A stretch of 64,000 nucleotides of DNA from Patescibacteria group bacterium (GTDB lineage: Bacteria; Patescibacteriota; Minisyncoccia; Minisyncoccales; RBG-13-36-15), in contig JAHCSE010000001.1 in assembly GCA_018609195.1 (NCBI GenBank), positions 9,559 to 73,558 of the forward strand, in the 5' to 3' direction. Below the pieces are notes generated by a model that did not search any database, was not told the DNA's origin, and was given only the letters and a program-made list of their open reading frames with translations. This document shows positions 7,957 to 63,550 of the stretch, piece by piece (the stretch's first letter is position 1; each line of letters starts with the position of its first letter). The translations under genes were made by a program, and so were the position numbers.

Positions 7957-8544
7957 TTAAGCTTCAGTTGCCGCCTTCTTTCCTGCCTTTCTTCGAATAA
8001 CTTCCCCAAAATATCTAATTCCTTTCCCTTTATATGGTTCAGGGGGCTTAACCTTTCTTATTTTAGCTGCAATCTGCCCCACCAACTCTTTATCAATTCC
8101 TGAAACAGAAATTACATTCTTTTCTACTGAAAATTTTATTCCCTCTGGAGCTTTTATTTTTACAGGATGAGTAAATCCAACTCGCAAAACTAAATCTTCT
8201 CCCTCAATTAAAGCTCGATAGCCCAAACCCTCTATTTCTAATTTTTTTTCGTAACCCGTAGTCAATCCCTCAATGGAGTTAGCTAAAAGACTCCTAGTTA
8301 AGCCCCAAAGAGCTTTAGTTCGCTTGGTTTCTATTCGGGGAGAAACCACTAAAATTTTTCCCGAGGGGCGAGCTTGAGGCGGGAGGGTGATCGAAGGAGT
8401 AGCGTCCTTCAATTCAATTTTAATTTCAGGCGGAAGCTCTTTCGAAAGCTCGCCCTTTGGACCTTTAATCGTCACTTTCTCCCCTTCAATTTTGACTTCA
8501 ACCCCTTGAGGTATTTCAATTGGTTTTTTGCCTACACGACTCAT
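7957..8544 (-). CDS. rplF: 50S ribosomal protein L6
   Basis: SRVGKKPIEIPQGV N-terminus, two-domain L6 length, operon position. Confidence 0.92.
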   Translation of the reverse strand: MSRVGKKPIEIPQGVEVKIEGEKVTIKGPKGELSKELPPEIKIELKDATPSITLPPQARPSGKILVVSPRIETKRTKALWGLTRSLLANSIEGLTTGYEKKLEIEGLGYRALIEGEDLVLRVGFTHPVKIKAPEGIKFSVEKNVISVSGIDKELVGQIAAKIRKVKPPEPYKGKGIRYFGEVIRRKAGKKAATEA

Positions 8545-14132: not shown

Positions 14133-14271
14133 GTCGCTCGCCCTCCTCCAGCCTTTGGCTGGCGGTCGCCTTCGGCGACCTTCGGGCTCGCTCTTTAGAA
14201 ACCCTCGGTTTCTAACACTCGCTTCGCTTGCTGTTTTCCTACACGGGAGAACCTATGGTTCTCCCGACCCC
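14133..14271 (-). repeat. module A element, copy A1 (4 hairpins)
   Basis: Sense strand: GGGGTCGGGAGAAC-CATAG-GTTCTCCCGTGTAGGAAAACAG..TTAGAAACC-GAG-GGTTTCTAA..GTCGCC-GAA-GGCGAC..CCAGCC-AAA-GGCTGG..AGGAGGGCGAGCGAC. Confidence 0.85.
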
Positions 14272-14923
14272 TCTCCATTTTGGGCAGCAAATTGGGTTTC
14301 AGGAATGTCTCTTTTATTATATTTATTGATTCTTTAGGTATTAATAAATATTTGAAAGAAAGTAAGTCCAAGGGATTTAAATCTTTAGTCTGGGTAGTTT
14401 CTACTTTAGGAATATTTTTTGAGGCTCTAATGACAGCTTCCTCTTTTGTAGGAAGAGCAATCAAACAAGATGCTTTTTTTATTGGTAGATTATTTAAAAT
14501 CTCAACAATCAATTTTGTCTTTGGTTTATCTAATTTTAAAGAATCCAAAAGAACTATTAAATTTTCTTTAGCTTTCGTTGATAATACCATAAACAAAGCT
14601 TTTCTTCTCATTTTTTTAGGAATTTTTTGCTTAAAAACTCTCGTTTTTCTTGGTCCAAAAGTGATTCCTCCTCCTCGCCAGATTGGAGAACGAATAGAGC
14701 CTGCCCTCGCTCTCCCTGTTCCTTTTTGCCGCCAGGGTTTTCTTCCTCCACCCCGAACCTCAGCTCTAATTTTGGTATGAGCGATAGGAATCCTTCTATT
14801 TGCCATCTGGCTCACCACTACCTGATGTACTAAATCAGGATTGATTTTCACATCAAAAATTTCTTTTGGTAATGAAGTTTTCCCAACTTCTTTTCCTTCT
14901 TGATTGTAAGTCTTAATAAACAT
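14195..14923 (-). CDS. rplD: 50S ribosomal protein L4 (C-terminus reads into repeat A1)
   Basis: L4 motifs (RGGGRKPWRQKGTGRAR). There is no stop before the repeat, so the last ~25 codons (..ERGRENHRFSRVGKQQAKRVLETEGF) are encoded by element A1. Confidence 0.9.
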   Translation of the reverse strand: MFIKTYNQEGKEVGKTSLPKEIFDVKINPDLVHQVVVSQMANRRIPIAHTKIRAEVRGGGRKPWRQKGTGRARAGSIRSPIWRGGGITFGPRKTRVFKQKIPKKMRRKALFMVLSTKAKENLIVLLDSLKLDKPKTKLIVEILNNLPIKKASCLIALPTKEEAVIRASKNIPKVETTQTKDLNPLDLLSFKYLLIPKESINIIKETFLKPNLLPKMERGRENHRFSRVGKQQAKRVLETEGF

Positions 14924-14931: not shown

Positions 14932-15080
14932 AGCGAGGGTAAGTTTTTCAAAGAGCATCTCGGAGGCATCGCTGGCATGGTGTCCGAGCGCAACGAGGAA
15001 CAGCGACGCCGAGAGTTGAACAAAATTTTCCTCGCTGGGGAAAATTATTGTGTCTCTTTGAGGAAGCTTTGCCCGAACGC
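14932..15080 (-). repeat. module B element, copy B1 (149 nt)
   Basis: About 91% identical (13 mismatches by eye) to 20288..20436. Fills the whole rplC-rplD spacer. Imperfect terminal inverted repeats GCGTTCGGGCAAAGC / GCTTACCCTCGCT. Confidence 0.85.
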
Positions 15081-15674
15081 TTATCCTCTAATTTCAAGCA
15101 GTGTTCCTTTTGCTCCTGGTACTGCTCCCTTCACTGCTAATAAATTATTTTCTGCATCAACTTTCACAACTTTTAAATTTTTCACTGTAACTCTTTCAAA
15201 GCCCATTCTGCCTGGCATTTTTTTTCCTTTAATCACTCTCTCTGGGAATGAAGAACCAACAGATCCCGGAGTTCTGGCTTCATGCTTTACTCCGTGAGAA
15301 GCTCCTCTTCCAGCAAATCCCCATCTTTTGACTACTCCGGCAAATCCTTTTCCTTTTGAGATACCAGAAATTTTCACTTTTTCTCCTTCCTCAAAAATTG
15401 AAACATCAATCTTTTGCCCTTCTTTAAAATCCTTTGCTTTATTTTTAAATTCTCTTAGAAATCTGAAAGGTTTTTTCCTCAGTGGTTTTTTAATCCGCTT
15501 TTTTTTCTCTATTTTTTTAAAACCGAGTTGAATAGCTTCGTACCTATCTTTTTCTTCGGTCTTCACTTGCGTGACAAAACAGGGGCCAGCCTCGATTACT
15601 GTTACTGACAAGACATTACCTTTTTCATCAAATATCTGGGACATTCCTAATTTTTGACCAAGAATAAACTTCAT
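15081..15674 (-). CDS. rplC: 50S ribosomal protein L3
   Basis: 197 aa; GKGFAGVVKRWGF and FKEGQKIDVS motifs. Confidence 0.93.
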   Translation of the reverse strand: MKFILGQKLGMSQIFDEKGNVLSVTVIEAGPCFVTQVKTEEKDRYEAIQLGFKKIEKKKRIKKPLRKKPFRFLREFKNKAKDFKEGQKIDVSIFEEGEKVKISGISKGKGFAGVVKRWGFAGRGASHGVKHEARTPGSVGSSFPERVIKGKKMPGRMGFERVTVKNLKVVKVDAENNLLAVKGAVPGAKGTLLEIRG

Positions 15675-15873
15675 ACTTTCCTACGAATTACTCTATCGCT
15701 AAGCGACTCCCCGGAGGGTTGATATTTGCGAATATACGAATAATAATTTTCCAACAAAATACCGGGCACTAACCCGGTACTTTATTTTGTAGGTTAGTTA
15801 ATTTTATAATTTTATAAATTTTTGAAATAATTATTTCTTATCATAATGAGATAAAAAATATATTCGTAGGTAT

Positions 15874-15900
15874 CTACATTTTTATTTCGATATCACCTCC
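15874..15900 (-). repeat. orphan duplicate of the last 8 codons + stop of rpsJ
   Basis: ctacatttttatttcgatatcacctcc versus 16010..16036 ctacatttttatttcgatgtcaactcc (25/27 identical). Lies on the far side of element A2. Confidence 0.85.
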
Positions 15901-15990
15901 GTCGCTCCGCTCCTTAGAAACCCGCGGTTTCTAACGCTCGCTTCACTCGCTGTTTTCCTACACGGGGAGACACCCAGTCTCCCCGACCCC
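15901..15990 (-). repeat. module A element, copy A2 (short form, hairpins 1-2)
   Basis: Sense: GGGGTCGGGGAGAC-TGGGT-GTCTCCCCGTGTAGGAAAACAG..TTAGAAACC-GCG-GGTTTCTAA-GGAGCGGAGCGAC. Confidence 0.85.
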
Positions 15991-16009
15991 TTCTGTGCGG
16001 AGTTGCCAT

Positions 16010-16354
16010 CTACATTTTTATTTCGATGTCAACTCCGGCTGGTAAATTTAAATTCATCAGAGAATCGATCACTTTTGAGCTAGGATTTAAAATATCAATG
16101 AGTCTTTTGTGAATTCTCGTTTCAAACTGTTCTCGGGCATCTTTGTGGATAAAAGAAGATCTATTGACGGTGTATTTGTGAATTTCAGTTGGTAAGGGGA
16201 CAGGTCCCGAGACCTCCGCCCCATATCTTAAAACAGTCTCCACAATCTGCCGAGCACTGCTATCTATAACTTTGTGGTCATAGGCTTTAAGCCTTATCCT
16301 AATCCTTGGCTTAACTTCTTCCTCAATTTCTTTTGATTTTTCCTTAACTTTCAT
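16010..16354 (-). CDS. rpsJ: 30S ribosomal protein S10
   Basis: 114 aa; [15 protein letters not shown] and [14 protein letters not shown] motifs. N-terminal K/E extension. Confidence 0.94.
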
Positions 16355-17847: not shown

Positions 17848-17925
17848 CTATTTCCTCTTTCCCTCAATGATCTCCTGAGTAATATTCTGAGGTACTTCTC
17901 CGTAATGGTCGAATTCCATCGTAAA
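17848..17925 (-). pseudogene. orphan second copy of the last 25 codons + stop of fusA
   Basis: Encodes [25 protein letters not shown] versus the fusA end [25 protein letters not shown] (22/25 aa identical, 54/78 nt identical). Confidence 0.85.
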
Positions 17926-18089
17926 GTCGCTCCGCTCCTCCAGTCTTCGGCTGGCGCTCCCCGCCAACATCTTCGAAGTTGTGGCGGGTCGCTTCGCTCC
18001 GCTCCCCAGACACCTCTCGGTTTCTGGCGGTCGTCGCTTCGCTCCTCCCTGTTTTCCTACACGGGAAAACACCCAGTTTTCCCGACCCC
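17926..18089 (-). repeat. module A element, copy A3
   Basis: Sense: GGGGTCGGGAAAAC-TGGGT-GTTTTCCCGTGTAGGAAAACAG..CCAGAAACC-GAGA-GGTGTCTGG..two further hairpins..GGAGCGGAGCGAC. Confidence 0.85.
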
Positions 18090-18120
18090 TTTCTGCTTCA
18101 CTATGGAGTTTTATCTAAAA

Positions 18121-20256
18121 TTATCTCCGTTTGCCTTCTATAATTTCTTGTGCGATGTTCCCTGGCACTTCACCGTAGTGATCAAACTCCATAGTAAACG
18201 TTCCTCGGCCTTCGGTCATCGATCGCAAAGCTGTGGCATAACCAAACATCTCAGCCAGAGGAACTTTAGCTGAAATTATTTTCAAATTTAACCTATCTTT
18301 TGTTTCTTCAATCTTCCCCCTCCTCGCTCCTAAATCCCCAATAGTATCTCCAAAAAATTCAGAAGGAATAATTACTTCTAATCTCATTATCGGTTCAAGT
18401 AAAATAGGTTTTGCTCTTTTGGCGGCCGTTTGCAAAGCAGCAGATGCAGCTATCTTGAAAGCAAATTCTGAGGAATCAACCTCATGATAGGAACCATCAT
18501 AAAGAGTCACTTCGATGTCAACCATAGGATAGCCTGCAGTTATCCCTTTTTCCATAGCTTCCTTCACTCCTTTTTTCACAGCGGGGATAAATTCTTTTGG
18601 GATGATTCCTCCTTTAATCTCGTCGATAAATTCAAATCCCTCTCCTCGTGTTTTGGGCCGAATTTTCAAGAAAACATGACCATATTGGCCTCTGCCGCCT
18701 GATTGTCTAATATATTTTCCTTCAGCTGAAGTTTCCTCTTTTATTGTTTCTTTATAGGCAACCTGAGGTCTTCCGGATGAAGCTTCCACCTTAAATTCTC
18801 TTCTCATTCGATCATTAATTATCTCTAAATGGAGCTCCCCCATTCCTGAGATAATAGTTTCTCCCGTTTCTAAATCACTTTTAATTTTAAAAGTGGGGTC
18901 TTCCTCAGCCAATCTTTTCAAAGCTAAACTCATTTTCTCTTGGTCGGCCTTCGTTTTCGGTTCAATTCGAATGGAAATGACAGGTTCTGGAAAGGTAATT
19001 TTTTCTAAGACAATGGGGTTATCAGGGTCACAAAGAGTATGACCAGTACTAGTTTTTTTTAATCCAACCGTAGCCCCAATATCTCCAGCGAAAAACTCTT
19101 GTACTTCCTCACGATCTGCCGCATGCATCCTTAAAATTCTCCCAATTCTCTCTTTCTCGCCCGTAGTTGCATTTAATACATAAGAACCTCTTTTTAAGCT
19201 ACCTGCATAAACTCGGAAATAATTTAAAGTTCCAACATAAGGATCAGCAGCAGATTTAAAAACCAAAGCGGAAAATGATTCTGAATCTAAAACTTTTCTT
19301 TCAATTTCCTGACCATTTCGAGGATCAACTCCTCTCACCGGAGGTAAATCCAAGGGGCTAGGCAAAAAATTCACAATTCCATCTAAGAGAGGCTGAATTC
19401 CTTTATTTCTCAAAGCTGATCCACAAAATACCGGGATGAGTTTGTAGGAAATTGTGGCTTTTCTCAATACTTCTCTCAATTCATTGATTGAAATTTCCTT
19501 TTTGGCTAAGTATTTCTCTAAAAGTTTCTCATCTTCAGCTGCAATTTTCTCCACTAATTTTTCTCGCCACTCTTTAGCGATCTTGCGCAAATTTTCAGGT
19601 ATCTCTTCTTCAACAACATTCTGGCCAAAGTCACCTTCAAATTTTAAGGCTCGCATTGTAAAGAGATCAATCACTCCTTCAAAATTTTCCTCGCTACCAA
19701 TTGGTAATTGAAGAACCACCGCCTGGGGAGATAATTTTTCCCAAATTGATTGCAAGCTCTTTTCAAAAGAAGCTCCTGTCCTATCCATTTTATTGATAAA
19801 GCAAATTCTGGGAACAGAAAATCTATCTGCTTGATGCCATACCGTCTCAGATTGAGGTTCTACTCCTGCTACTCCATCGAAAATCACTACCGCCCCATCC
19901 AAAACTCGCAAAGATCTTTGTACTTCCGCTGTAAAATCAATATGGCCAGGAGTATCAATAATGTTTATTCGATACTCATCTTTTTTGCTTTTTTCTTTGG
20001 ATTGACCGGGGGCGGTGTGTGGGTGATAGGTGGATGGAGTCCAAAAACAAGTAGTGGCTGCAGCTGTAATAGTAATTCCCCTTTCTTTTTCTTGAATCAT
20101 CCAATCCATTATTGCCTCCCCTTCATGAACTTCTCCAATTTTATGAGAAATTCCAGTATAGAAAAGCACCCGCTCAGTAACGGTTGTTTTCCCAGCATCG
20201 ATATGAGCAATAATACCAATATTGCGAGTTCGTTCTATTGGATACAAACGAGGCAT
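18121..20256 (-). CDS. fusA: elongation factor G
   Basis: [17 protein letters not shown] and NKMD motifs; 711 aa. Confidence 0.97.
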
Positions 20257-20287: not shown

Positions 20288-20436
20288 AGCGAGGGTAAGC
20301 TTCTCAAAGAGCATCTCGGAGGCGTCGCTGGCAAGGTGTCCGAGTAAAGCGAGGAACAGCGACGCCGAGAGTTGAACAAAATTTTCCTCGCTGGGAAAAA
20401 TTATTGTGTCTCTTTGAGGGGGCTTTGCCCGAGCGA
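20288..20436 (-). repeat. module B element, copy B2 (149 nt)
   Basis: See B1. Contains a 10-bp stem GGCGTCGCTG/CAGCGACGCC and a long-range stem CTCAAAGAG/CTCTTTGAG. Confidence 0.85.
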
Positions 20437-20452
20437 ATCACCAAGCCAAATG

Positions 20453-20603
20453 GTCGCTCGCCCTCCTCCAGCGCAGAGCGCTGGCGGACGCCTTTGGCGT
20501 CCTTCGGGCTCACTCCCCAGACACCTCTCGGTTTCTGGCGCTCCTTCGCTTTCGCTCAGTCACTGTTTTCCTATACGGGGAAACACCCAGTTTCCCCGAC
20601 CCC
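20453..20603 (-). repeat. module A element, copy A4
   Basis: Sense: GGGGTCGGGGAAAC-TGGGT-GTTTCCCCGTATAGGAAAACAG..CCAGAAACC-GAGA-GGTGTCTGG..GACGCC-AAA-GGCGTC..CCAGCGC-TCT-GCGCTGG..AGGAGGGCGAGCGAC. Confidence 0.85.
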
Positions 20604-20609
20604 TTTCTG

Positions 20610-20635
20610 CCACTTTGCGTTACCACGCAAAGTGG
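20610..20635 (-). promoter_or_regulatory. 10-bp hairpin enclosing the rpsG stop codon
   Basis: CCACTTTGCG-TGGTAA-CGCAAAGTGG on the sense strand. The stop codon is in the loop, and the 3' arm abuts element A4. Confidence 0.7.
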
Positions 20636-21087
20636 GCAAAAGCTCTATTCGCCTCTGCCATCCTGTGAGTATTTTCTTTCTTTTTCACTGCCCAGCCAGT
20701 GTTATTTGCGGCTTCTATCATTTCTTCAGCCAATTTCTCTCTCATTGGTTTTCCTTTTCTTGATTTGGCAGCTTGGATAATCCAACGCATAGCTAAAGTT
20801 AGCCTTCTTTCCCCTTTCACTTCTCTCGGAACCTGATAGGTAGCACCTCCAATTCTTTTCGCTTTAACCTCAAGTAAGGGGGAGGCATTTTTCAGAGCCT
20901 GATCAAAAACTTCCAAGGGGTCTTTTTTCGTTTTTCCTTTAATTATATCAAAGGCCTGATAAACAATTCTTCTCGCCAGCATCTTTTTCCCTCGCCGCAT
21001 TACCTGATTGATAAACTTTGATACAATGATGTTATTGTAAACCGGGTCAGATGTAATTTCCCTTTTTTCTTTTTTCTTCCTCCTCAT
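20620..21087 (-). CDS. rpsG: 30S ribosomal protein S7
   Basis: 155 aa; [14 protein letters not shown] and RAFAHFAW C-terminus. Confidence 0.95.
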
Positions 21088-21501: not shown

Positions 21502-21618
21502 AAACCCTACGAATTACGAATCAGTACGAATATACGAATAAATTTCCCCGACCCCTTCCGACGTGGGCTGCTATTTCTGTTTCGCAGACAATAGTAACAT
21601 TATCCTCTCAAAAATAAT

Positions 21619-25325: not shown

Positions 25326-25364
25326 AGTCCTACGAATTACGAATATTTACGAATATACGAACAG

Positions 25365-26219: not shown

Positions 26220-26298
26220 TGATTTTATTATAACGAACTATGTTCGATATATCACGCTGCGCGTGCTATAGGTTAGTTTATTGTGATTGAAAACAAAA

Positions 26299-26317
26299 AA
26301 CCGCCTTCTTGGCGATT
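26299..26317 (-). terminator. family terminator AATCGCCAAGAAGGCGGTT(T)n, copy a
   Basis: 7-bp stem AATCGCC/GGCGGTT, loop AAGAA, then a T-run. Downstream of 26339..26704. Confidence 0.6.
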
Positions 26318-26704: not shown

Positions 26705-26722
26705 TATTTCATTCTATCAAAA

Positions 26723-26741
26723 AACCGCCTTCTTGGCGATT
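26723..26741 (-). terminator. family terminator, copy b
   Basis: Identical 19-mer aaccgccttcttggcgatt. Downstream of 26823..27479. Confidence 0.6.
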
Positions 26742-27479: not shown

Positions 27480-27728
27480 TTTTCTCTTCCCTCCTTAACT
27501 GCAGATGTATTTTAAGTTAATTTAGATATTTGTAAAGAGTTAGGTTATATAGATTTTCACAAAAACAATCATTCAATAAAGAGTGGCGTTTTATTTTTTT
27601 AGGCTCCCAGACGGCGACTCAAACCCTTAAACCCTCACCTCCAACTCAAATTTAAGCCAATTATTGGACCATTGTCTATGGTCTCTCAGATTACGAACGG
27701 TGGTCTACTAATGGTTATTAAGGATAAA

Positions 27729-27747
27729 AACCGCCTTCTTGGCGATT
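27729..27747 (-). terminator. family terminator, copy c
   Basis: Identical 19-mer. Downstream of 27842..28087. Confidence 0.55.
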
Positions 27748-28917: not shown

Positions 28918-28937
28918 ATATATAATTCTAACAAAAA

Positions 28938-28956
28938 AACCGCCTTTTTGGCAATT
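28938..28956 (-). terminator. family terminator, copy d (variant)
   Basis: aaccgcctttttggcaatt. Downstream of the 29072..29224 gene. Confidence 0.5.
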
Positions 28957-30731: not shown

Positions 30732-31253
30732 TTAGTATTCAACCCCTATTTTTGCTAAAACCCCTTTTTTAAAAGGGTGTTTTATTTCTTTACATTCAGT
30801 TGCCAAATCAGCAATCTTAATTAACTCTTTGGGGGCACCTCTCCCAGTAAGAATTAAATCTACTTCAGAAGGAGCTTTTTTTAGAATTTCCAAGACTTCT
30901 CTTAATTTAATGAGATTTAAAGAGATGGCAACATTTACTTCATCTAAAATTATCAAGTCAAATTCTCCAGAATGAATCGCATTTTTGGCAATTTTTAAGG
31001 TCTCTCGGGCTGCAAGTTCGTGAACTTCTCGGGGAAGCTTGTCCCCCATTATCCCAACAAAACCTTCTCCGCCTTTTATCAATTGAAATTTTGGTTCTAG
31101 GCTTTGGATGGTCTTTTCCTCGCCAGTTGGCCATTTTTTACTTTTAATGAACTGAATCATCAAAACTCGCTTTCCCTGGCCAACTGCCCGAATTCCCTGG
31201 CCAATGGCAGCTGTCGTTTTCCCTTTTCCATTCCCAGTAAAAACAAAAATCAT
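30732..31253 (-). CDS. cobO: ATP:cob(I)alamin adenosyltransferase (CobA/CobO/BtuR type)
   Basis: 173 aa; P-loop GNGKGKTTAA and ILDE motif. Overlaps nrdJ by 4 nt. Confidence 0.85.
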   Translation of the reverse strand: MIFVFTGNGKGKTTAAIGQGIRAVGQGKRVLMIQFIKSKKWPTGEEKTIQSLEPKFQLIKGGEGFVGIMGDKLPREVHELAARETLKIAKNAIHSGEFDLIILDEVNVAISLNLIKLREVLEILKKAPSEVDLILTGRGAPKELIKIADLATECKEIKHPFKKGVLAKIGVEY

Positions 31254-35679: not shown

Positions 35680-35826
35680 AAAAATGTGTCCTCCTCCGTT
35701 AAAACTTTGGAGGACATGGATGGCATTCTGACTTTCACAGTTACGGCATAGTCCCGGATTTCCTGCCCGCATCGCTATACGAAGTATTGCAGGCGGGTCA
35801 CCGGAGTTCCCCATCCGTTTTCAAAG
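35680..35826 (-). promoter_or_regulatory. cobalamin riboswitch with terminator expression platform
   Basis: Sense strand: GGATGGGGAACTCCGGTGA...GGAAATCCGGGACTATGCCGTAACTGTGAAAGTCAGAATGCCATCC (B12-box-like AGTCAGAATGCC; P1 stem GGATGG/CCATCC). This is followed by the hairpin TGTCCTCC...GGAGGACA and T7. Confidence 0.78.
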
Positions 35827-35837
35827 TCCGTTAATAA

Positions 35838-51941: not shown

Positions 51942-52799
51942 CTACGGCAGAATTTGAAGTAGCCGTTCGCTTAACGTGATTACAATATTAAAGGCACCCA
52001 TAAGGATGAGGAAAAAGCCTCCTAATAACCTGATAGGTTTCATTTGCCTAACCAATGTTTGTGTCAAGGATTCTCTCGCAAATCCAGCTATAACTGAAAG
52101 TGATATCATGAGCAAAGCCATAACAGTACTTGCAAGTATAAAGACAGTTAAAGCAGAGGATAACCCGCCGCCACTCAAGGCAAAAAGAGAAAGTCCACCA
52201 ACTAAGGGAGCTACACAACCTATCCCAGCTAAAGTATATCCAAATCCAAACATAAAAAATTTACCAAACATTCCGCGGCCTCTTTTCGATATTTCAGTGC
52301 CAAGATGTTCCACTTTTCCTAAACTGACGAATACTTTATTGGTTACCAATGCCAACCCAAGTCCTATCAACAAAACACCAATGATTCGTCTAAACCATAG
52401 CAGTGCCGTTGTTCCTGGTTTAATAAAATTAATAAATGTTTCTCCCAAAAGTCCGATGACAATTCCGAAAAGAATCATAAACGCTAAAAGACCTAATGCA
52501 GCATAGAATCCATTACGAATCAGTTTTCCTCGAGAAAGTACTCGCCCTCCCCCACTCACCACCTCTGTTTGATAAACCAAATAAGATGGGAGGATCGGTA
52601 AAACACACGGATTAAAGAAAGCCGCTATCCCGACACCTAAGCCAGCGACAATAAGCGTAACCAAGGATATATCCGATGGTTTCATAAAACTTTTTGTAGC
52701 CGAAAAGAGGTAAAATCCGATAACTGCTATAACAATAAAAAACACTGCTAAGCCGATGTAAAGTAGAACAGGATGAGTTTTTGTCTGAGTATTATTCAT
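51942..52799 (-). CDS. CcdA/DsbD-like thiol-disulfide transporter paralog
   Basis: 285 aa; FFNPCVLPILPSYLVY and GIGCVAPLVGG motifs. Confidence 0.72.
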   Translation of the reverse strand: MNNTQTKTHPVLLYIGLAVFFIVIAVIGFYLFSATKSFMKPSDISLVTLIVAGLGVGIAAFFNPCVLPILPSYLVYQTEVVSGGGRVLSRGKLIRNGFYAALGLLAFMILFGIVIGLLGETFINFIKPGTTALLWFRRIIGVLLIGLGLALVTNKVFVSLGKVEHLGTEISKRGRGMFGKFFMFGFGYTLAGIGCVAPLVGGLSLFALSGGGLSSALTVFILASTVMALLMISLSVIAGFARESLTQTLVRQMKPIRLLGGFFLILMGAFNIVITLSERLLQILP

Positions 52800-52896
52800 A
52801 GGTACTATTTGAAGTTATAAGCTATTAGTTAATCATTTTAGAACTCGACCTTTGATTTCTTTTTCTTTAACTAATGCCCTCGTGGTTATAATAGGT

Positions 52897-53064
52897 TTAT
52901 TGATGCCTGTCCTGTAGGACGTGCTTATTAATTTCGAGATTGCAGCTTTTGTGTTCTCTGCACCAAGCCTCACATTTCTCTGCCCACTCTTCATCTTCAT
53001 ACTTATATCCACATTCCTCGCATTGATATAATTCTTTGTTTTCTTGTTCTATTTTCTTAACCAT
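52897..53064 (-). CDS. Cys-rich zinc-ribbon protein (55 aa), unannotated paralog of 57515..57700
   Basis: Own translation: MVKKIEQENKELYQCEECGYKYEDEEWAEKCEAWCREHKSCNLEINKHVLQDRHQ. Overlaps the upstream gene by 8 nt. Confidence 0.65.
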   Translation of the reverse strand: MVKKIEQENKELYQCEECGYKYEDEEWAEKCEAWCREHKSCNLEINKHVLQDRHQ

Positions 53065-53332
53065 TTTGGGGAGATAATTCTTTTAATTTTTCTACTAACT
53101 TATTTTTATCAAGCCCTCCAACTGCAAAAAGCTCTCCATTAACGACAATACCAGGCGAAACCATAATACCGTATTCCTGAACCATTTTCTGGCCTTGTTC
53201 AGAAAACATATCAATGTATTCAATTTCCGCATCTGGAAATTGGGGTTTAATTTCTTCTTCTAAAGTTTTCTTTGCCGTGGCACAGTGACTACACCCTGGT
53301 GTTGAAAGTTCTTGAATTTTTATCTTATTCAT
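53057..53332 (-). CDS. small thioredoxin-fold protein (redox-active disulfide protein 2-like)
   Basis: 91 aa; TPGCSHCATAKK CxxC; SPGIVVNGE. Confidence 0.75.
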   Translation of the reverse strand: MNKIKIQELSTPGCSHCATAKKTLEEEIKPQFPDAEIEYIDMFSEQGQKMVQEYGIMVSPGIVVNGELFAVGGLDKNKLVEKLKELSPQNG

Positions 53333-53882
53333 ATTCTCTTAAGGCTTGGAAAGAATTATCTAATATATTATTGACCTTATCCCAATATCCTTGACTGATA
53401 GCATCATTCAACTCCTCTTCAATAAATACTTCGAGAGAGACTCCTCGTTCTGCAAGTCCTTGAGCGAGTATGCTTAATTTGAATTCAATTTCTTGAGGAA
53501 TTTCTGTTACTTGCCCCCGAGAAGTAGTGCCGGTATATGCCTGGTCAGCAAGGATACGAGCAGAATATGCTTGAAAAATTGAAGCATCTATAATTTGTTC
53601 TTTCGTAATGCTCGTAGAATCATATATTACCCAACCAGAATCAGTTCTCGGGTCAGCATCTGCTTGCACAACTCCTGGTATGCCCAATAAGGAATTTACC
53701 ACACTTGAACGACATCCCAGACAAAACATATTGTTAATCTCCAAATCCACCTTCCGAAGGTTTGCTTGGACAACATCTCCTCCAAGAGAAGTATCCTTAC
53801 TGCTGCCACCGAATAGAAACACTCCTCCGATAATTGCCCCCACAATAATTATTGACAATGGTATGAGAAGACTCTTATTCAT
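53325..53882 (-). CDS. membrane-anchored heavy-metal-associated (HMA) domain protein
   Basis: N-terminal TM helix; NNMFCLGCRSSVVNSLLGIPGVVQADAD is an MxCxxC ferredoxin-like metal-binding domain. Confidence 0.65.
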   Translation of the reverse strand: MNKSLLIPLSIIIVGAIIGGVFLFGGSSKDTSLGGDVVQANLRKVDLEINNMFCLGCRSSVVNSLLGIPGVVQADADPRTDSGWVIYDSTSITKEQIIDASIFQAYSARILADQAYTGTTSRGQVTEIPQEIEFKLSILAQGLAERGVSLEVFIEEELNDAISQGYWDKVNNILDNSFQALREYE

Positions 53883-53905
53883 AGAGGTTTAATAATAGTG
53901 TAAGT

Positions 53906-54075
53906 CTACTACATCCCCCAAATAAAAAATATAGTAAACATCCACATGCTTGTTAAAACTAATATTCCGCCTGCAACCTTTTTCATTGTTTCTGTTTTTC
54001 CAATCATTGTTTTGAAAAAAGTGTGCTTACCCTGTCCGATAAATACGGTAACTGCAATAAGAAATAGGGCTTGAA
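53906..54075 (-). pseudogene. orphan 3'-terminal fragment of a CcdA-like gene
   Basis: About 93% identical (about 12 mismatches in ~170 nt by eye) to 55384..55553, the 3' end of 55387..56214. No upstream coding part remains. Confidence 0.8.
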
Positions 54076-54077
54076 AT

Positions 54078-54200
54078 TTAAAAACCCGCAGCTCGTTCCA
54101 TGACTTCAGCCACTTGTTCTTTTGTAATGTTTTTTGCTATTTTGATTACACTTTCGCAGCAGGTGCAATCTTTTATATGGATTATAGTTAGCGTTGTCAT
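54078..54200 (-). CDS. 40-aa ORF resembling a truncated HMA domain
   Basis: Own translation: MTTLTIIHIKDCTCCESVIKIAKNITKEQVAEVMERAAGF. May be a gene fragment. Confidence 0.3.
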   Translation of the reverse strand: MTTLTIIHIKDCTCCESVIKIAKNITKEQVAEVMERAAGF

Positions 54201-54235
54201 AATATGTGTTTAATTAGTTATTATTTTTCTATACA

Positions 54236-55357
54236 TTACCTTACTGAAGTATATTCTCCGAGCAGACCTTTTTTCGATAATACTATCTGCCATTGCTGGG
54301 CTTTTCGAGCCCGGAAGGATCCTGCAGCCGAGAGAAGATAGTATTTCCACATTCGATAAAATCTATCCCCATATTTAGTGCGCAATTCATTCCAGTGCGA
54401 ATTAAAGTTGTCCCACCAGTGCATAAGAGTCGTATCGTAGTGAGTACCAAAGCTATGCCAGTCCTCAAGAACAAACAGCCCTTCCGCTGCCTTTGCGATC
54501 TGTTTGTATGACGGAAGCATTGTATTCGGAAAAATATATTTCAAATACCACGGATCCAATCCAATTGAGGACGTACTAACACCTCCTGCGTCTAAGAGAA
54601 AAAGTCCATCATCGCTAAGCATGGAGTGAACCTTTTCCATGTAGAGTCGGTAATTTTTGTATCCGACATGCTCAAACATCCCTAACGAAACAATATGGTC
54701 AAACGTTCCATCAATATCACGATAATCCTGTAGACGAGTTTCTGTCGGCAAATCACCGCGCTGTGCGTTCGCATAGTCCGCCTGCTCTTTCGACACCGTA
54801 ATCCCTACACATTGAGCCCCGTAGCGCTCAGCAGCAAAGTTGATAAAGCTGCCCCACCCTGAGCCAATATCGAGAATTCGATCGCCTTTTTGTATTCCAA
54901 GTTTCCTGCACGTAAGGTCGAGTTTTAATTCCTGTGCCTCGTCAAGTGTTTGCGCATTCTTCCAGTACCCACATGTGTAGGTCAGTCGTTTGTCGAGCAT
55001 TGCCTTAAATAAGTCATTGCCAATGTCATAGTGATCTTCTCCAACCTGAAACGCGCGCAAACGCGGCATGTTGATGAGCTTTGCCTTGAGATAATTCCAT
55101 ACCAATACTGGATTTATGCGTGCCTGTTTTTCAAGTCTCGAGCGAAGAACTTTGTTAAAAAATTCATCAAGCTCTTTCACGTCCCACCAGCCGTCCATAT
55201 ACGACTCACCAAGCCCGAGAGAGCCCTGGCTTAGGACACGACCGTAGAATTTCTCGTTGTGCACTTGAATATCCCATGGTCGATCGCCATTGATTGTAAT
55301 ACCTGCCTCCGAAGCTAATTGTTCAATAACTACTTTAGGTGTAAACGGCATATTCAA
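54236..55357 (-). CDS. cfa: cyclopropane-fatty-acyl-phospholipid synthase
   Basis: 373 aa, colinear with classic Cfa (GSLGLGESYMDGWWD, VLDIGSGWG, GMFEHVG, YDTTLMHW). Visibly GC-richer than its neighbours. Confidence 0.88.
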   Translation of the reverse strand: MNMPFTPKVVIEQLASEAGITINGDRPWDIQVHNEKFYGRVLSQGSLGLGESYMDGWWDVKELDEFFNKVLRSRLEKQARINPVLVWNYLKAKLINMPRLRAFQVGEDHYDIGNDLFKAMLDKRLTYTCGYWKNAQTLDEAQELKLDLTCRKLGIQKGDRILDIGSGWGSFINFAAERYGAQCVGITVSKEQADYANAQRGDLPTETRLQDYRDIDGTFDHIVSLGMFEHVGYKNYRLYMEKVHSMLSDDGLFLLDAGGVSTSSIGLDPWYLKYIFPNTMLPSYKQIAKAAEGLFVLEDWHSFGTHYDTTLMHWWDNFNSHWNELRTKYGDRFYRMWKYYLLSAAGSFRARKAQQWQIVLSKKGLLGEYTSVR

Positions 55358-55386
55358 TTATTTTTCTACAAACGTTAGAAAGATTA

Positions 55387-56214
55387 CTACATTCCCCATA
55401 TAAAGAATATAGCAAACATCCACATACTTGTTAAGACTAATATTCCGCCTGCGACCTTTTTCATTGTTTCTGTTTTTCCAATCATTGTTTTGAAAAACGT
55501 GTGCTTTCCCTGCCCGATAAATACGGTAACTGCAATAAGAAATAATGCTTGAGCAAGACTAAAAATCAGAAAGCTTGAAATACTGACTAAAAATTCTCCA
55601 CCCACAAGAGGGAAGAATACCAATGGTAAAAAGATGGGCAAGAAACACATCAATCCTCCAGCCCCATATACAATGCCAAAGCCAAAAAGATTAACGCTTT
55701 GTGAACGCCCACGACTCATTTTATTAACTTTATCTCTGAAGGAAGAAAGAAAATTAATATTGATAGATTTGCCACGCAAAAAAGCAATGCCGATAAACAA
55801 AATGAGAATTGCAACGGCAAATTTCAATTGGCTAGCATAGGAAGCCAGAAATGTCCCGATAGTCGCAAAAAGTAAACCAAGGACAATAAAGAAGCTGAAT
55901 ACACCGAGTGAGGCAATAATGCCAAGCTTGATACTTCTTTTAATTGGCGAGTGTTTTTCTTCTCCCTCGTCCATTCCAAGATAAAAAGACATATAAGCCG
56001 GAAGCACTCCTAAGGAACAGGGTCCAAAATTCACAATAAGCCCGGCAATGAAAGCAAAGCCCAAAATACCAAGCGTGCTAAAGGCAGCAAGATTGCTTGT
56101 CTGGGGAATAATAATCCCATACAGAACTTTCCAGCCAAAGATACTGGCAACCACAAAAATAGTAAGTGCTGCCAATATCCAAATGCTATAAGTTACTATT
56201 TTTGACTTAATCAT
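55387..56214 (-). CDS. CcdA/DsbD-like thiol-disulfide transporter paralog
   Basis: NFGPCSLGVLPAYMSFY motif. Start set at MIKSKIV (4 nt after the stop of the upstream gene) rather than the track's 56286. Confidence 0.68.
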   Translation of the reverse strand: MIKSKIVTYSIWILAALTIFVVASIFGWKVLYGIIIPQTSNLAAFSTLGILGFAFIAGLIVNFGPCSLGVLPAYMSFYLGMDEGEEKHSPIKRSIKLGIIASLGVFSFFIVLGLLFATIGTFLASYASQLKFAVAILILFIGIAFLRGKSININFLSSFRDKVNKMSRGRSQSVNLFGFGIVYGAGGLMCFLPIFLPLVFFPLVGGEFLVSISSFLIFSLAQALFLIAVTVFIGQGKHTFFKTMIGKTETMKKVAGGILVLTSMWMFAIFFIWGM

Positions 56215-56218
56215 AAAA

Positions 56219-57076
56219 TTAAGGAAAAAGAATTTTTGTAAATGGAGTGATGAAAACAGAAGAAAGAATAAGGAAAATTCCGACAATAAGAAGTAGAACG
56301 CCGCTTACTCTTTTGATAGCAACGGTTGATTGGCGAAGACTTTGGAGTAAAGTTTCTTTGGAAAAAGCAATGAGCAGTGATACAACAATCATCAGAAGTG
56401 CCATTACTAATGAATAAACCACAAAAGCCAGAAACGCATCTGAGAAGCCACCTTGAGATAGTGCAAATACAATGAGCCCACCCATGATTGGGCCTCCACA
56501 ACCGATACCAAGTAGTGGATAGCCAAAACCATAGCCATAGAGTTTTCCAAATCCCGCTTGTTTTTCTTCCGGCAATGATTTCGGATGCCATAAATGCCCT
56601 AATCTCCCAAAAGGATTCCCTCTCCCTGTGGCGTGGCTAAAACCAAGATACAGAAGAAACACTCCTACAATGCCACGCAGCCATCTTACTGGTATGCTTG
56701 GGTTTTCTCCTGCAAGCCCTAATGATTTCCCAAAACCAGCTCCTAAAATACCAATGCCAATACCGAGTAAAAGATTAAAGGTGATAAGACCTAATGCTGC
56801 TGCTAATCCAGAGAGGAGTAGTTTCGTTGCTGACTTTTTACTTTCACCTTCTTTTGTTGTGTAGTATTGAGCAAAGTAGGCAGGAAGCAATGGAAAAGCA
56901 CAAGGGTTAAAGAAACTTGCCACTCCTGCAACTACCGCAACAAATAGTAACCCAAAAGCAGCACCTCCCTTCATTATGTTGATAACAAACCAGATAAATA
57001 ACCCATACCCGCCTGCTACCAAAACAAAAATAATAAAAAAAAGAAAAATGAGCTTGCTCCAATCTTTTAACGACAT
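56219..57076 (-). CDS. CcdA/DsbD-like thiol-disulfide transporter paralog
   Basis: 285 aa; FFNPCAFPLLPAYFAQY and GIGCGGPIMGG. Overlaps ArsR-2. Confidence 0.72.
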   Translation of the reverse strand: MSLKDWSKLIFLFFIIFVLVAGGYGLFIWFVINIMKGGAAFGLLFVAVVAGVASFFNPCAFPLLPAYFAQYYTTKEGESKKSATKLLLSGLAAALGLITFNLLLGIGIGILGAGFGKSLGLAGENPSIPVRWLRGIVGVFLLYLGFSHATGRGNPFGRLGHLWHPKSLPEEKQAGFGKLYGYGFGYPLLGIGCGGPIMGGLIVFALSQGGFSDAFLAFVVYSLVMALLMIVVSLLIAFSKETLLQSLRQSTVAIKRVSGVLLLIVGIFLILSSVFITPFTKILFP

Positions 57077-57369
57077 AGCTTTTTGCAGAATTTGTTAATA
57101 TGCTTATCCATTAACCCAAGAAGCGGCTTTGTTGTTTCTTTGTTTAGAGTATAAATGCGTTCTTTTCCATTTCTTTCCATGCTTACAAAACCACATTTTT
57201 GAAGCCGTCCTAAGTGATGCGAGACAAGACTTTGCTCATAGCCAAGTTTCTTGGCAATAGCAGTTACATTTAGCTTTCCTTTTCGAAGCAAATGGATAAT
57301 ATCCCACCTTGTTTTATTCCCCAGGGTTTCAAAAAAGATTTTATATGGTTCGCGAATAATTCTCTTCAT
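57067..57369 (-). CDS. ArsR/SmtB-family transcriptional regulator
   Basis: 100 aa; LGNKTRWDIIHLL...QSLVSHHLGRLQKCGFV winged HTH. Confidence 0.82.
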   Translation of the reverse strand: MKRIIREPYKIFFETLGNKTRWDIIHLLRKGKLNVTAIAKKLGYEQSLVSHHLGRLQKCGFVSMERNGKERIYTLNKETTKPLLGLMDKHINKFCKKLCR

Positions 57370-57376
57370 AGTATGA

Positions 57377-57404
57377 ATTATATTTCATATGAAACTTATG
57401 TCAA
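57377..57404 (-). promoter_or_regulatory. consensus promoter of ArsR-2 with palindromic operator; transcript probably leaderless
   Basis: Minus strand TTGACA-taagTTTCATATGAAA-TATAAT. The 12-bp perfect palindrome fills the spacer, and the -10 box ends only 7 nt before the ATG. Confidence 0.65.
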
Positions 57405-57457
57405 GTGTATTTTTCCACAAGAGTTCTCATTGTTTTGTTTTGTATAGAGATATAAAA

Positions 57458-57476
57458 AACCGCCTTCTCGACGATT
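57458..57476 (-). terminator. family terminator, copy e (variant)
   Basis: aaccgccttctcgacgatt. Downstream of 57515..57700. Confidence 0.5.
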
Positions 57477-57514
57477 GATTAAGATTTCAGCCTACCCTGT
57501 TGCTCCCTATTTCT

Positions 57515-57700
57515 TTAGCTCTCTGACTTCTCAAGGAAAGCAGGTTCTTTCACAGCGTGCTCGGTAATCTCAAGGTTACAGCTTTTGTGTTCCAAGCACC
57601 AAGCCTCGCATTTCTCTGCCCACTCTTTTTCTCTATAAGTAAAACCGCACTCTCTGCACTGGTAATACGTTTTATTGTTTTGAGTAATAACTTTTGGCAT
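57515..57700 (-). CDS. Cys-rich zinc-ribbon protein (61 aa)
   Basis: YYQCRECGFTYREKEWAEKCEAWCLEHKSCNLEI. Paralog of 52897..53064. Confidence 0.65.
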   Translation of the reverse strand: MPKVITQNNKTYYQCRECGFTYREKEWAEKCEAWCLEHKSCNLEITEHAVKEPAFLEKSES

Positions 57701-63390: not shown

Positions 63391-63512
63391 GGGGTCGGGA
63401 GGATTGGGTATCCTCCCGTATAGGAAAACAGGCTTTCAGGTGAGCGAAGCGAAGACTGAAAACGTTAGAAACCGTGGGTGTCTAAAGAACATGGTGCCGA
63501 GCGTTAGCGAGG
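63391..63512 (+). repeat. module A element, copy A6 (opposite orientation)
   Basis: Plus strand: GGGGTCGGGAGGAT-TGGGT-ATCCTCCCGTATAGGAAAACAG..GAGCGAAGCGAAG..TTAGAAACC-GTG-GGTGTCTAA.. Confidence 0.8.
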
Positions 63513-63550
63513 TCTATGTTCTTATACCGCATTTTATTCACAAACAAAAA

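Follow-up and report, generated by a model that had tools for sequence, protein, structure and literature searches.

The same noncoding module, which we call module B, lies at two places in the str-S10 gene cluster of a Patescibacteria genome: between rplC and rplD, and again upstream of fusA. What is this module, and how did it come to stand between genes of this kind? The initial annotation of the 64,000-nt stretch analysed here (the window) had left two answers side by side: the module could be a MITE bounded by terminal inverted repeats, or a structured RNA lying between cistrons. Both copies lie at the coordinates it had given, and its count of 13 mismatches across 149 nt was correct; when the comparison is confined to the element proper, CG(C/T)TCGG...CCTCGCT, 12 mismatches remain in 148 nt (91.9% identity). 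The genes and both copies are all on the minus strand, so that the shared orientation it described holds, and the sequences it quoted are the minus-strand reading. The features discussed below are as follows.

14932..15079, minus strand: B1, full element CGTTCGG...CCTCGCT, 148 nt, filling the rplC-rplD spacer (match to covariance model R1, E=3.9e-10)
15073..15079, minus strand: B1 5′ terminal motif CGTTCGG (family consensus CGCTCGG), 1 nt past the rplC TAA
15032..15038, minus strand: B1 P3 heptaloop CCAGCGA, invariant family-wide and complementary to both termini
14974..14981, minus strand: B1 junction motif ACCATGCC (family consensus GAGACCATGCC)
14932..14938, minus strand: B1 3′ terminal motif CCTCGCT, 8 nt before the rplD ATG
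20288..20435, minus strand: B2, full element CGCTCGG...CCTCGCT, 148 nt, lying between the rpsG relic and fusA (match to R1, E=1.2e-10)
20429..20435, minus strand: B2 5′ terminal motif CGCTCGG
20388..20394, minus strand: B2 P3 heptaloop CCAGCGA
20330..20337, minus strand: B2 junction motif ACCTTGCC, an A-to-T variant of the family motif
20288..20294, minus strand: B2 3′ terminal motif CCTCGCT
15081..15674, minus strand: rplC (L3, 197 aa, PF00297), its stop directly before B1
14195..14923, minus strand: rplD (L4), starting 8 nt past B1; the tail of its ORF extends into module A1
18121..20256, minus strand: fusA (EF-G), starting 31 nt past B2
20438..20452, minus strand: 15-nt relic of the rpsG 3′ end, CATTTGGCTTGGTGA, encoding HLAW*
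20453..20619, minus strand: module A4, which separates the live rpsG stop (20620-20622) from the rpsG relic and B2; it was inserted there and is not part of B

Read along the genes, the rplC TAA (15081-15083) is followed by a single linker G (15080), B1 (15079-14932), the 8-nt spacer ATTAACTT and the rplD ATG (14923-14921). At the second site module A4 is followed by the rpsG relic, a TT linker, B2, 31 nt and the fusA ATG (20256). A relative, L004, carries a B-like element behind its live rpsG stop, the same arrangement as that of B2 behind the relic. The 38-nt core of B occurs exactly twice in the window, against 0.00 occurrences expected from 100 shuffles, and blastn, nhmmer and the covariance model found no third copy in the 64 kb. 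An independent assembly of the same organism (Logan contig L001) confirmed the junction between rplC and B1. That contig ends inside module A2 and inside B1, as repeats would predict, and B repeats account for assembly breaks in the ribosomal-protein operons of these organisms.

The stems named in the initial annotation are all present in the minimum-free-energy folds of B1 and B2: an imperfect terminal pairing, CTCAAAGAG/CTCTTTGAG (one mismatch in B1), TTTTCC..GGAAAA, and GGCGTCGCTG/CAGCGACGCC (one G-U in B1). Relative to shuffled sequences, the fold-energy z scores of the two copies are -2.7 and -3.6 when the gene strand is folded, and -3.1 and -3.7 for its complement. We searched for relatives with the motif pattern CGCTCGG..CCAGCGAG..CCATGCC together with covariance model R1, and recovered 13 distinct full-length members, two of them the window copies, as well as four truncated ones, all in Patescibacteria contexts. 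Full-length members span 136-153 nt, and the density in the sequence read was two copies per 64 kb in the window and one per related locus of 2-15 kb. One subfamily of about 90% identity occupies five junctions (rnc|rpsP, rpsU|, rpsH|dnaJ, PBP| and fusA|).

Several searches returned nothing of this kind. Exact 20-mers of the B core had no match in the genome or metagenome contig collections, neither of which holds the source genome, and 13 pattern matches in viral contigs yielded none that the covariance model confirmed. A first gapped pattern run on genome contigs hit mostly GC-rich genomes, chiefly a conserved Collinsella gene, and was rejected; 3 of its 120 loci were real (L022, L046 and L120). 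Rfam gave no gathering-score match in the window and no match at E<=1 in seven relative loci, and at E<=10 over 13.9-21.7 kb it returned only chance-level lncRNA matches. We found no account of B-type elements in the literature on CPR/Patescibacteria repeats. The family is apparently undescribed and outside any known family.

Across the family, a long covarying closing helix (P1/P2) leads into a three-way junction with the P3 hairpin and a P4/P5 arm. The termini, 5′-CGCTCGG and CCTCGCT-3′, form two GC clamps flanking a UC/CU bubble, so that 4 of the 7 terminal positions are paired (GC clamp plus pyrimidine bubble), and the adjoining part of P1 is complementary but hypervariable. The P3 loop CCAGCGA is invariant, and the P4/P5 arm is followed by the invariant junction motif GAGACCATGCC. 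In all, about 35 nt are invariant, concentrated in the P3 hairpin loop, the junction strand and both tails, and all helices covary. A plain MAFFT alignment violates this fold, and RNAalifold run on it yields only 16 pairs; we therefore turned to the covariance model, with two copies as its seeds, and scored pairing in the remaining 11. The initial annotation had proposed a covariation analysis once more copies were known, and on these 11 non-seed copies the helices proved to be kept by compensatory substitutions. Pair cells were paired in 91.9% of cases, compared to 64.6% in shuffles (0 of 500 reached the observed value) and 33-48% with slid partners, and 37 of 44 pairs had changes on both sides. 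Moderately diverged pairs of copies differed by 7-11 compensatory and 3 disruptive changes.

The opposite strand folds 10-14 kcal/mol better than the gene strand, a gain that we attribute to the C-richness of the gene strand, and free folds contain 41 G-U pairs on the opposite strand compared to 10 on the gene strand. In the consensus helices this asymmetry disappears and wobble is scarce on either strand, with 6 G-U and 10 A-C among 468 cells, a tally that favours neither RNA nor single-stranded DNA. UUCG-type loops cap P5 on the gene strand in several members, and 2 of the 12 differences between B1 and B2 are one-sided yet keep the pair, such as a G-C to G-U change in P4. Promoter and intrinsic-terminator searches turned up nothing specific to B above background. 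A conserved small ORF from an invariant AUG was considered and rejected; by our own reading it has 9 codons in six members and varies in length and sequence in the others.

Comparison with relatives points to the origin of the two copies. At the rplC-rplD junction, the empty site of relative L007 reads GGATAAG|ATTATG, and the filled site of the window reads GGATAAG, then B1, then ATTAACTTATG, a precise insertion. No target-site duplication was found at any of 13 copies, nor in this comparison of filled and empty sites. The rplC|rplD junction is occupied in 4 of 10 relatives and empty in 6; the rpsG|fusA or rpsG|tuf junction is occupied in 3 of 7 and empty in 4. B1 resembles B2 (92%) far more than it resembles the orthologous copy in L005, with which it has only motifs in common, and L004 has its own subfamily at both its rpsG and rplC sites. 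Such paralogue-over-orthologue similarity could stem from gene conversion instead of recent transposition. Four related loci (L007, L133, L140 and L046) have 5′-truncated copies with intact 3′ ends stacked downstream of intact ones, and two (L005 and L156) contain mini-derivatives and tandem units with B termini. A duplicated gene 3′ end accompanies the L005 mini-element, as it does module A. Precise entry next to a stop codon without target duplication, sporadic occupancy, within-genome likeness and stacked truncated 3′ ends together lead us to regard B as insertional.

Insertion alone would also suit a classical MITE of the cut-and-paste type, bounded by terminal inverted repeats and mobilised by a DDE transposase, and B is indeed small, noncoding and repeated, with partly complementary termini and variable presence among relatives. 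We nevertheless regard this reading as largely refuted and very improbable. Neither the 13 copies nor the filled and empty sites show a duplication, only four of the seven terminal bases pair and do so as a GC clamp, the internal loops are conserved as much as the ends, the orientation bias is absolute, copy number is low in the sequence available, and no autonomous partner IS was seen. The initial annotation had suggested looking for a related IS with the same termini; a survey of the window together with some 270 kb of related loci revealed none, nor any ORF-sized segment bounded by B termini. The outcome that it had named as contrary to its proposal, an IS or MITE family with ordinary duplications and no structural conservation, is not what these copies present, since duplications are absent and covariation is strong. 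The 10 ORFs neighbouring the operon include no transposase or reverse transcriptase, and no mobilising enzyme, RAYT, TnpA or TnpB gene was seen near the window operon or in the annotated related loci.

The position of B relative to genes is as regular as its fold. Wherever the upstream flank of a copy could be read, which was the case for 15 copies, the element points the same way as the ORFs around it. In 11 of these 15, CGCTCGG starts 1-6 nt past a live upstream stop; with B2, 2 nt past the relic rpsG stop, the count is 12 of 15. Two upstream ORFs extend a few codons into the element. Elsewhere B follows rpoB, mraZ, rnc, rpsH, rpsU, frr, rseP and a PBP gene, and neither the upstream nor the downstream gene is constant across copies. 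Left flanks vary (TAAG, GATT, TAGT, TGAG, AGGC, CAAT and others), even inside one subfamily. A ‘guide’ link between the variable P1 bases and the flank was dropped, as one subfamily occupies different flanks.

These contexts speak against B being an autoregulatory leader for a ribosomal protein or elongation factor (an L4 or S7 site, for example) duplicated within str-S10, the idea that the two window copies on their own would encourage, since both lie in that cluster directly before rplD and fusA. The family also stands behind rpoB, mraZ, rnc, frr, rseP and the PBP gene, it is absent from most related S10 and str operons, and no Rfam ribosomal-protein leader matches it; we find this reading barely credible. 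More generally, a conserved regulator of rplD and fusA is not borne out, given the 6 of 10 and 4 of 7 junctions that lack B and the other hosts elsewhere.

A broader version, in which B is a host-beneficial cis-acting operon RNA that is occasionally duplicated, has more to recommend it. Such an RNA might be a 3′-UTR or intercistronic binder of a protein or ligand, a processing or stability element, or a termination-coupled switch. The strict gene orientation and stop-codon adjacency would suit it, as would hosts devoted to translation and housekeeping (S7, L3, S8, S21, EF-G, RRF, RpoB, RNase III and MraZ), the UUCG-type P5 loops on the gene strand, the one-sided, pair-keeping changes between B1 and B2, and the invariant nucleotides of the loop, junction and tails set among covarying helices. 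About 35 invariant nt and strong covariation exceed what most selfish repeats keep, which fits a functional RNA. However, close relatives lack B at the same junctions, no neighbour gene is constant on either side, within-genome paralogues are closer than orthologues, and the stacked truncated copies and mini-derivatives resemble mobile-element debris. No Rfam family matches, and the near absence of G-U pairs would be odd for a long-lived functional RNA. We consider a host-beneficial RNA unlikely.

The debris raises another possibility, that B is mobile or self-processing at the RNA level, as a small ribozyme, an intron-like insert or a SINE-like retroelement copied from its 3′ end. Copies that are 5′-truncated and 3′-intact are the expected leftovers of target-primed reverse transcription, and precise insertion without target duplication is compatible with such a route. 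The P3 loop CCCAGCGAG(G) is complementary to CGCUCGG (6/7) and to CCUCGCU (6-7/7) and nearly complements a joined-ends sequence, and joined-end motifs, CCTCGCT-n-CGCTCGG, occur inside hairpin loops in the window (63503-63520) and in L135 and L156. It is conceivable, if far-fetched, that the P3 loop pairs in turn with both termini and that B would thereby cleave, excise or circularise from the operon transcript, the released RNA being the transposition intermediate. If so, excision would give back the spacing that originally separated stop and start, leaving the insertion without a phenotype, and the RNA intermediate would explain stacked copies without 5′ parts. B would then represent a new class of selfish element acting at the level of RNA: a ribozyme element, similar to an intron or a SINE, that lies between the genes of CPR bacteria. 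Against this, no ribozyme or intron family in Rfam matches, 148 nt is small for a self-splicing intron, and no reverse transcriptase lies nearby, in the window operon or the annotated related loci. The complementarity of loop and termini involves only invariant bases, beyond the reach of covariation, and is perhaps a by-product of the repeated CGCT motif. Group II introns are, in addition, reported to be absent from Patescibacteria (PMC13011429). An RNA-level element of this kind therefore strikes us as improbable.

We favour a reading, to which we give a probability of roughly 60%, in which B1 and B2 are one subfamily of uncatalogued noncoding insertion elements of Patescibacteria (CPR, Parcubacteria/Nealsonbacteria-like), REP/ERIC-like, non-autonomous and co-transcribed with their operons. 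Both original alternatives survive in part: B is repeated, inserted, noncoding, co-oriented with its genes and folded into a covarying structure, but the data support neither a classical MITE nor a conserved role in regulating rplD or fusA. The element may have been spread by machinery that is strand-specific and reads the conserved termini and loops, perhaps in the manner of REP/RAYT or by another route through single strands; alternatively, it may have moved by recombination with its anchor in the conserved genes on either side. Once in place, B would be transcribed within the operon mRNA and fold there. A ribosome terminating at the upstream stop would melt the base of P1, which in B1 would release the 3′ arm located 8-16 nt ahead of the rplD AUG, and the B1 fold would bring GAGGA at the rplC end near that AUG. 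The fold may be the reason why an operon with translational coupling can tolerate the insertion, and B may, like REP and ERIC elements, affect how stable neighbouring cistrons are or how they are translated. From the geometry we infer that such coupling clearly applies only to the start-proximal copies, B1, L046, L130 and L140.

The initial annotation had also seen in the juxtaposition of B2 with module A4 a sign that the two modules combine as a BIME-like mosaic. Their adjacency is real, but module A was found only in this organism, which leaves A4-B2 as a single instance and the mosaic doubtful. Two GAGCGAC sites, at 7019 and 51145, that we had considered as further copies of module A are coding sequence. 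Both modules are enriched for the tetramer CGCT/AGCG, with opposite polarity, and the reverse complement of the module A 3′ end is GTCGCTCG, matching the B 5′ end. At the level of these short motifs, the match suggests that the two modules have a recognition motif in common, not that they form a modular BIME.

The genomes of CPR/Patescibacteria are very small and densely packed, with little noncoding DNA, and to our knowledge almost nothing has been described of their repeats and noncoding RNAs. An element behind the stops of their most highly expressed essential operons would be either a remarkably well-adapted parasite of the genome or a form of operon control that has gone unrecognised. Its termini, loop and junction motifs and covariance model provide a searchable signature for CPR surveys and for finding the mobilising enzyme, and its position offers a way to test how translationally coupled operons accommodate structured inserts, a long-standing question.

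Among known systems, ERIC/IRU elements of enterobacteria and Correia/NEMIS elements of Neisseria are likewise imperfect palindromes of 100-160 nt in transcribed intergenic regions, co-transcribed with their neighbours. They fold in the mRNA, can alter the stability or processing of neighbouring cistrons, and are sporadic among strains. Correia elements carry inverted repeats of 26 bp along with a TA duplication, and ERIC elements occur in either orientation; in contrast, B has no duplication, one orientation, invariant loops and a branched fold, and its hosts belong to a different phylum. The mycobacterial MIRUs are tandem units of 46-100 nt with small coupled ORFs. Like B, they lie between operon cistrons in gene orientation with ends abutting the stop and start codons of their neighbours, an arrangement that in MIRUs has been argued to preserve translational coupling, whereas B is a single structured unit in which the short ORF from a conserved AUG varies in length and sequence.

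Integron attC sites share with B an imperfect hairpin of similar length that is conserved in structure rather than sequence, a place directly behind a stop codon, gene orientation and strand-specific recognition. B differs from them in having conserved internal loops and no RYYYAAC or GTTRRRY core sites, and it is flanked not by cassettes but by core housekeeping genes whose order is conserved. Palindrome-associated (HUH) repeats derived from IS200/IS605 resemble B in their precise insertion without target duplication, their strand specificity, and their structured ends, which have conserved mismatches and no true terminal inverted repeats. For IS200/IS605-type elements the insertion point lies 3′ of an unvarying tetra- or pentanucleotide, whereas the left flanks of B vary, its variable P1 bases do not track the flank, and no TnpA or TnpB lies nearby, although TnpB-like genes have been reported in Patescibacteria (PMC13011429).

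A further parallel in character is with the REP/BIME/REPIN elements of Proteobacteria and their RAYT (TnpA_REP) transposases; B has no sequence similarity to REPs. REPs are 20-40-nt hairpins or simple doublets whose hallmark is a GTAG or CGTC tag (PMC3733652); B is 136-153 nt long, with a three-way junction and conserved internal loops, lacks such a tag and ends in CGCTCGG and CCTCGCT. B is also of low copy number in the available sequence, has a single gene orientation, and has no RAYT gene in the loci read. According to the account of Liang et al. (2015) given in PMC12306157, many REPs are found no more than 15 nt from a stop codon, where ribosomes stall on them. REP subfamilies differ by complementary changes in their stems (PMC3733652), and B subfamilies are set apart in the same way. 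Both are extragenic, structured, noncoding repeats in transcribed spacers at gene 3′ ends, imperfect palindromes with a conserved mismatch near the base, and low-key, non-autonomous elements, which in B extend to the mini-derivatives and tandem units of L005 and L156.

Module B, a 148-nt structured repeat, occurs twice in the minus-strand str-S10 ribosomal-protein cluster (rpsL, rpsG, fusA, tuf, rpsJ, rplC, rplD, rplW, rplB, onward), whose host is placed by L3 homologues in the Patescibacteria/CPR, near Parcubacteria and Nealsonbacteria.

14932-15079, minus strand: B1, 1 nt past the rplC TAA and 8 nt short of the rplD ATG
20288-20435, minus strand: B2, 31 nt short of the fusA ATG

The copies differ at 12 of 148 positions and share a 38-nt core that occurs twice in the window against 0 expected occurrences, bearing out the initial annotation's observation of two copies; neither sequence search nor a covariance model found a third copy in the window. 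The 5′ side of B2 carries A4, a copy of module A (the other repeat of the window), then a relic of the rpsG 3′ end (15 nt, HLAW*) and a TT linker. B has a G+C content of ~50%, compared with 37.7% for the window, and the contig of a second assembly of the same organism is broken within A2 and within B1, as is expected at repeats.

Having collected relatives' S10 operons via their L3 proteins, we found elements of similar length but different sequence at the same operon places. Related loci are designated by L numbers.

L004: element directly past the rpsG stop, and a second directly past the rplC stop, cut by the contig end
L005 (the same as L006): element directly past the rplC stop
L002: contig ends 8 nt past the rplC stop, on ACGCTCAG
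L007: fusA preceded by a B-like element that the contig start truncates (L007 1-250)

Four blocks are common to B and the relatives' elements: the 5′-terminal CGCTCGG, CCCAGCGAG, ACCATGCC and the 3′-terminal CCTCGCT. Searches of public collections for these blocks yielded three Patescibacteria matches among genome representatives (L022, L046 and L120) amid GC-rich noise, and 13 metagenome matches representing 8 distinct loci; every match in the viral collection was noise, with no relative of B. The family comprises 13 distinct full-length elements (136-153 nt), including the two window copies, and four truncated ones. No Rfam family was matched by B in the window or by seven relatives' loci, and our literature search found no paper on such repeats or structured RNAs in CPR. 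B represents an apparently new family of intergenic insertion elements in CPR, conserved in structure.

The same architecture is predicted for every family member, and the stems listed in the initial annotation are all present in the predicted folds of B. At the base, the conserved termini form GC clamps (CG...CG and GG...CC) around a UC/CU bubble, above which a long closing helix, P1/P2, leads to a three-way junction. The P3 hairpin has a 7-nt loop, CCAGCGA, that is invariant in the family, and the P4 helix encloses a short P5 hairpin, with the invariant GAGACCATGCC next. A covariance model seeded on two copies (L004a and L133) recovered all the others with E = 1e-10 to 1e-24. Covariation, a check proposed at the outset, is evident in the 11 non-seed copies, on which pair counts were taken: both sides have changed in 37 of 44 pairs, the covariation score is 0.71 against a control of 0.22, and 91.9% of pair cells are paired, compared with 64.6% in shuffles (0/500 reach 91.9%) and 33-48% with partners slid, a figure that is somewhat inflated by fitting the alignment to the model but has a large margin and a pattern seen by eye. 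Moderately diverged pairs of copies show 7-11 compensatory versus 3 disruptive changes, and in the youngest pairs, B1/B2 included, the two kinds are about equal in number. Pairing is nearly pure Watson-Crick (424 Watson-Crick cells, 6 G-U and 10 A-C), so wobble counts are uninformative on the folding strand and on the level of the constraint (RNA or single-stranded DNA), and the opposite strand's more favourable folding energy, relative to the gene strand, is most simply a composition effect. Such a covarying fold is consistent with a host-functional RNA, which we rank first among rival explanations; an RNA-level self-processing or retro-mobile element ranks second. Patescibacteria are reported to lack group II introns and to have TnpB-like genes (PMC13011429).

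At rplC-rplD, the empty site in L007 reads GGATAAG/ATTATG and the filled site in the window GGATAAG-B1-ATTAACTTATG, revealing an exact insertion with no target duplication; the rpsG-fusA spacer in L005 is likewise empty, at 3 nt. Among the relatives examined, occupancy is 4/10 at rplC-rplD and 3/7 after rpsG, and the closest relative by L3 identity (L003, 86%) is without the element. The initial annotation had offered a MITE with terminal inverted repeats or a structured intercistronic RNA. That reading is partly right. Repetition, insertion and a covarying fold agree with it, but a classical MITE, the third-ranked rival, is very unlikely: B shows no target duplication, its terminal inverted repeats are weak, its interior loops are conserved and it has a single orientation, and no partner IS was found in the window or the related loci read.

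One subfamily occupies both window sites and another both L004 sites, paralogues being more alike than orthologues; either each genome's active subfamily re-invaded the same sites, or gene conversion homogenised the copies. A single ~90%-identical subfamily is spread over five different junctions. Debris also accompanies intact copies in L007, L133, L140 and L046, as 1-2 extra ~30-nt 3′ ends on their 3′ side, each with terminal CCTCGCT and resembling 3′ arms of other subfamilies. Two stacked 31-33-nt relics in L007 (1-250), …TTGTTGCCTCGCT and …CCACTTGCCTCGCT, follow the B-like element and resemble the 3′ arms of L140-like and L120-like subfamilies. Toxin-antitoxin genes (HigB-like, HicB-like, MNT/HepT) lie at fusA-tuf and rplC-rplD in L158 (3052-3976 and 6486-7628), so the same operon junctions also take other selfish cargo.

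We surveyed position in the 15 copies with a readable upstream flank, and all 15 are co-oriented with the neighbouring genes. CGCTCGG starts 1-6 nt past the upstream stop codon in 11; B2 starts 2 nt past the relic rpsG stop, in L120 and L132 the upstream ORF, respectively rpoB and a PBP gene, extends 5-7 codons into the element, and the position is ambiguous in L140, the remaining copy.

Occupied junctions: rplC-rplD, rpsG-fusA, rpsG-tuf, after fusA, after rpsU, rpsH-dnaJ, rnc-rpsP, rpoB-rpoC, mraZ-rsmH, frr-rseP, before rseP, rseP-proS, after a PBP gene

These varied gene contexts, with the patchy occurrence, rule out a ribosomal-protein leader, ranked fourth. The gap to the next start codon ranges from 8 to 83 nt, and a conserved AT-rich leader or promoter-like motif (ATTCGTATATTCGTA...) lies 3′ of the element in four loci, so the element is stop-proximal, not start-proximal. 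B is, then, a repeat inserted precisely at operon-gene stop codons, strand-specific and under structural constraint. An AT-rich motif, TTCGTATATTCGTA … ATTCGTAATTCGTAGGgtt-ATG in gene sense, is found at window 21506-21538, 25329-25361 and ~15725-15745, 3′ of B elements in L005, L022, L131 and L134, and directly 5′ of several start codons (rpsL, an ADK-like gene, rsmH, dnaJ), and probably represents a promoter or 5′ leader specific to the lineage.

We infer that B is non-autonomous, its termini and loops being recognised by some enzyme, and that it is transcribed as part of the operon mRNA; it does not stand out by promoter or terminator signals. A ribosome whose A site holds the stop codon would cover the first ~8 nt of the element and so melt the GC clamp and the beginning of P1, and in B1 the freed 3′ arm would lie 8-16 nt before the rplD AUG. 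Folded B1 would return the rplC-end GAGGA to within ~12 nt plus a helix end of that AUG, compared with the ~8 nt by which the corresponding AGGA precedes the rplD ATG in relatives lacking B. On this model the fold plausibly keeps translational coupling and Shine-Dalgarno geometry across the 148-nt insert, which would explain why only well-folding copies persist. REPs ≤15 nt from stop codons stall ribosomes (Liang et al. 2015, as cited in PMC12306157), and by analogy B may lower or tune the upstream gene's expression.

The proposed BIME-like mosaic of A and B is weakly supported: A was not found in the relatives searched, only in this organism, so A4-B2 is one adjacency rather than a recurrent mosaic. 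The modules nevertheless share sequence. On the gene strand, B is enriched in CGCT (2-6 per element versus ~0.8 expected) and A1-A4 in the complement AGCG (4-8 versus ~1.3), and the reverse complement (GTCGCTCGC) of the constant A 3′ end (GCGAGCGAC) matches the B 5′ end. A fifth copy of A (63400-63530, minus strand), inverted relative to A1-A4, lies in a spacer past an intrinsic terminator and starts, in gene sense, AAGAACATAGA-CCTCGCT-AA-CGCTCGG-CACCATGTTCTT, CGCTCGG then being followed by CACCATG; this is a joined 3′-end/5′-end B-type motif within a hairpin loop. The simplest reading is a common recognition motif in opposite polarity.

Other features of the window are as follows.

15872-16037, 17848-18121 and 20438-20637, minus strand: A insertions, each followed by a second copy of the upstream gene's 3′ end (rpsJ, 30 nt, 28/30 identical; fusA, 26 codons, live and relic ends with many synonymous differences; rpsG at A4, live HFAW*, relic HLAW*); this resembles acquisition along with the gene end of a donor, by homology-facilitated illegitimate recombination, or else long variable target duplications
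14195-14300, minus strand: rplD ORF extends ~30 codons into A1 before its stop (242 aa versus 212-223 aa in most relatives); L4 may have an element-encoded tail
26286-26317, 26710-26741, 27716-27747, 28925-28956 and 57445-57476: five copies of the small hairpin motif AAAAAACCGCCTTCTTGGCGATT (family D5/D7), a repeat that may be terminator-like or bind protein
30732-31253: BtuR/CobO adenosyltransferase gene
35713-35827, minus strand: AdoCbl-II (cobalamin) riboswitch, 39.1 bits, over the Rfam gathering threshold
52442-57682: several 70-173-nt direct repeats of 70-92% identity (53902/55380, 52920/57556, 52442/56740), suggesting duplicated genes or a repeated cassette

Smaller units have the same termini. 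A 28-nt hairpin mini-element follows rplW in L005 (9659-9706; compare L156 11690-11716), its inserted TCGCTCGGCAAC pairing with the native rplW end GAAGTCTTGCCTCGCT; the native Pro-Arg-stop codons CCT CGC TAA, which are seen in the live gene of L156, are by coincidence the same as the B 3′ terminus, and L005 rplW is now stopped by a recoded duplicate of its own end (…CCT AGA TAG). The fusA-tuf spacer of L156 (~7990-8100) holds tandem 46-nt units, CGCTCGG-hairpin-CCTCGCT, and the permuted junction CCTCGCT-n-CGCTCGG lies in the loop of a hairpin at 63.5 kb in the window and of single hairpins at L156 3595 and L135 ~3886 (minus strand). The tandem units and single loop hairpins are small members of a termini-defined superfamily, of which B appears to be the large, branched member.

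Among known kinds, the hallmark of REPs is a GTAG or CGTC tag (PMC3733652); B, without either, far larger and branched, is not strictly a REP. Nor is it an attC site, having no core sites, or an IS200/IS605-type end, having no fixed flank. The nearest counterparts of B in kind are REP, ERIC and Correia-type repeats, though it is a member of none of them.
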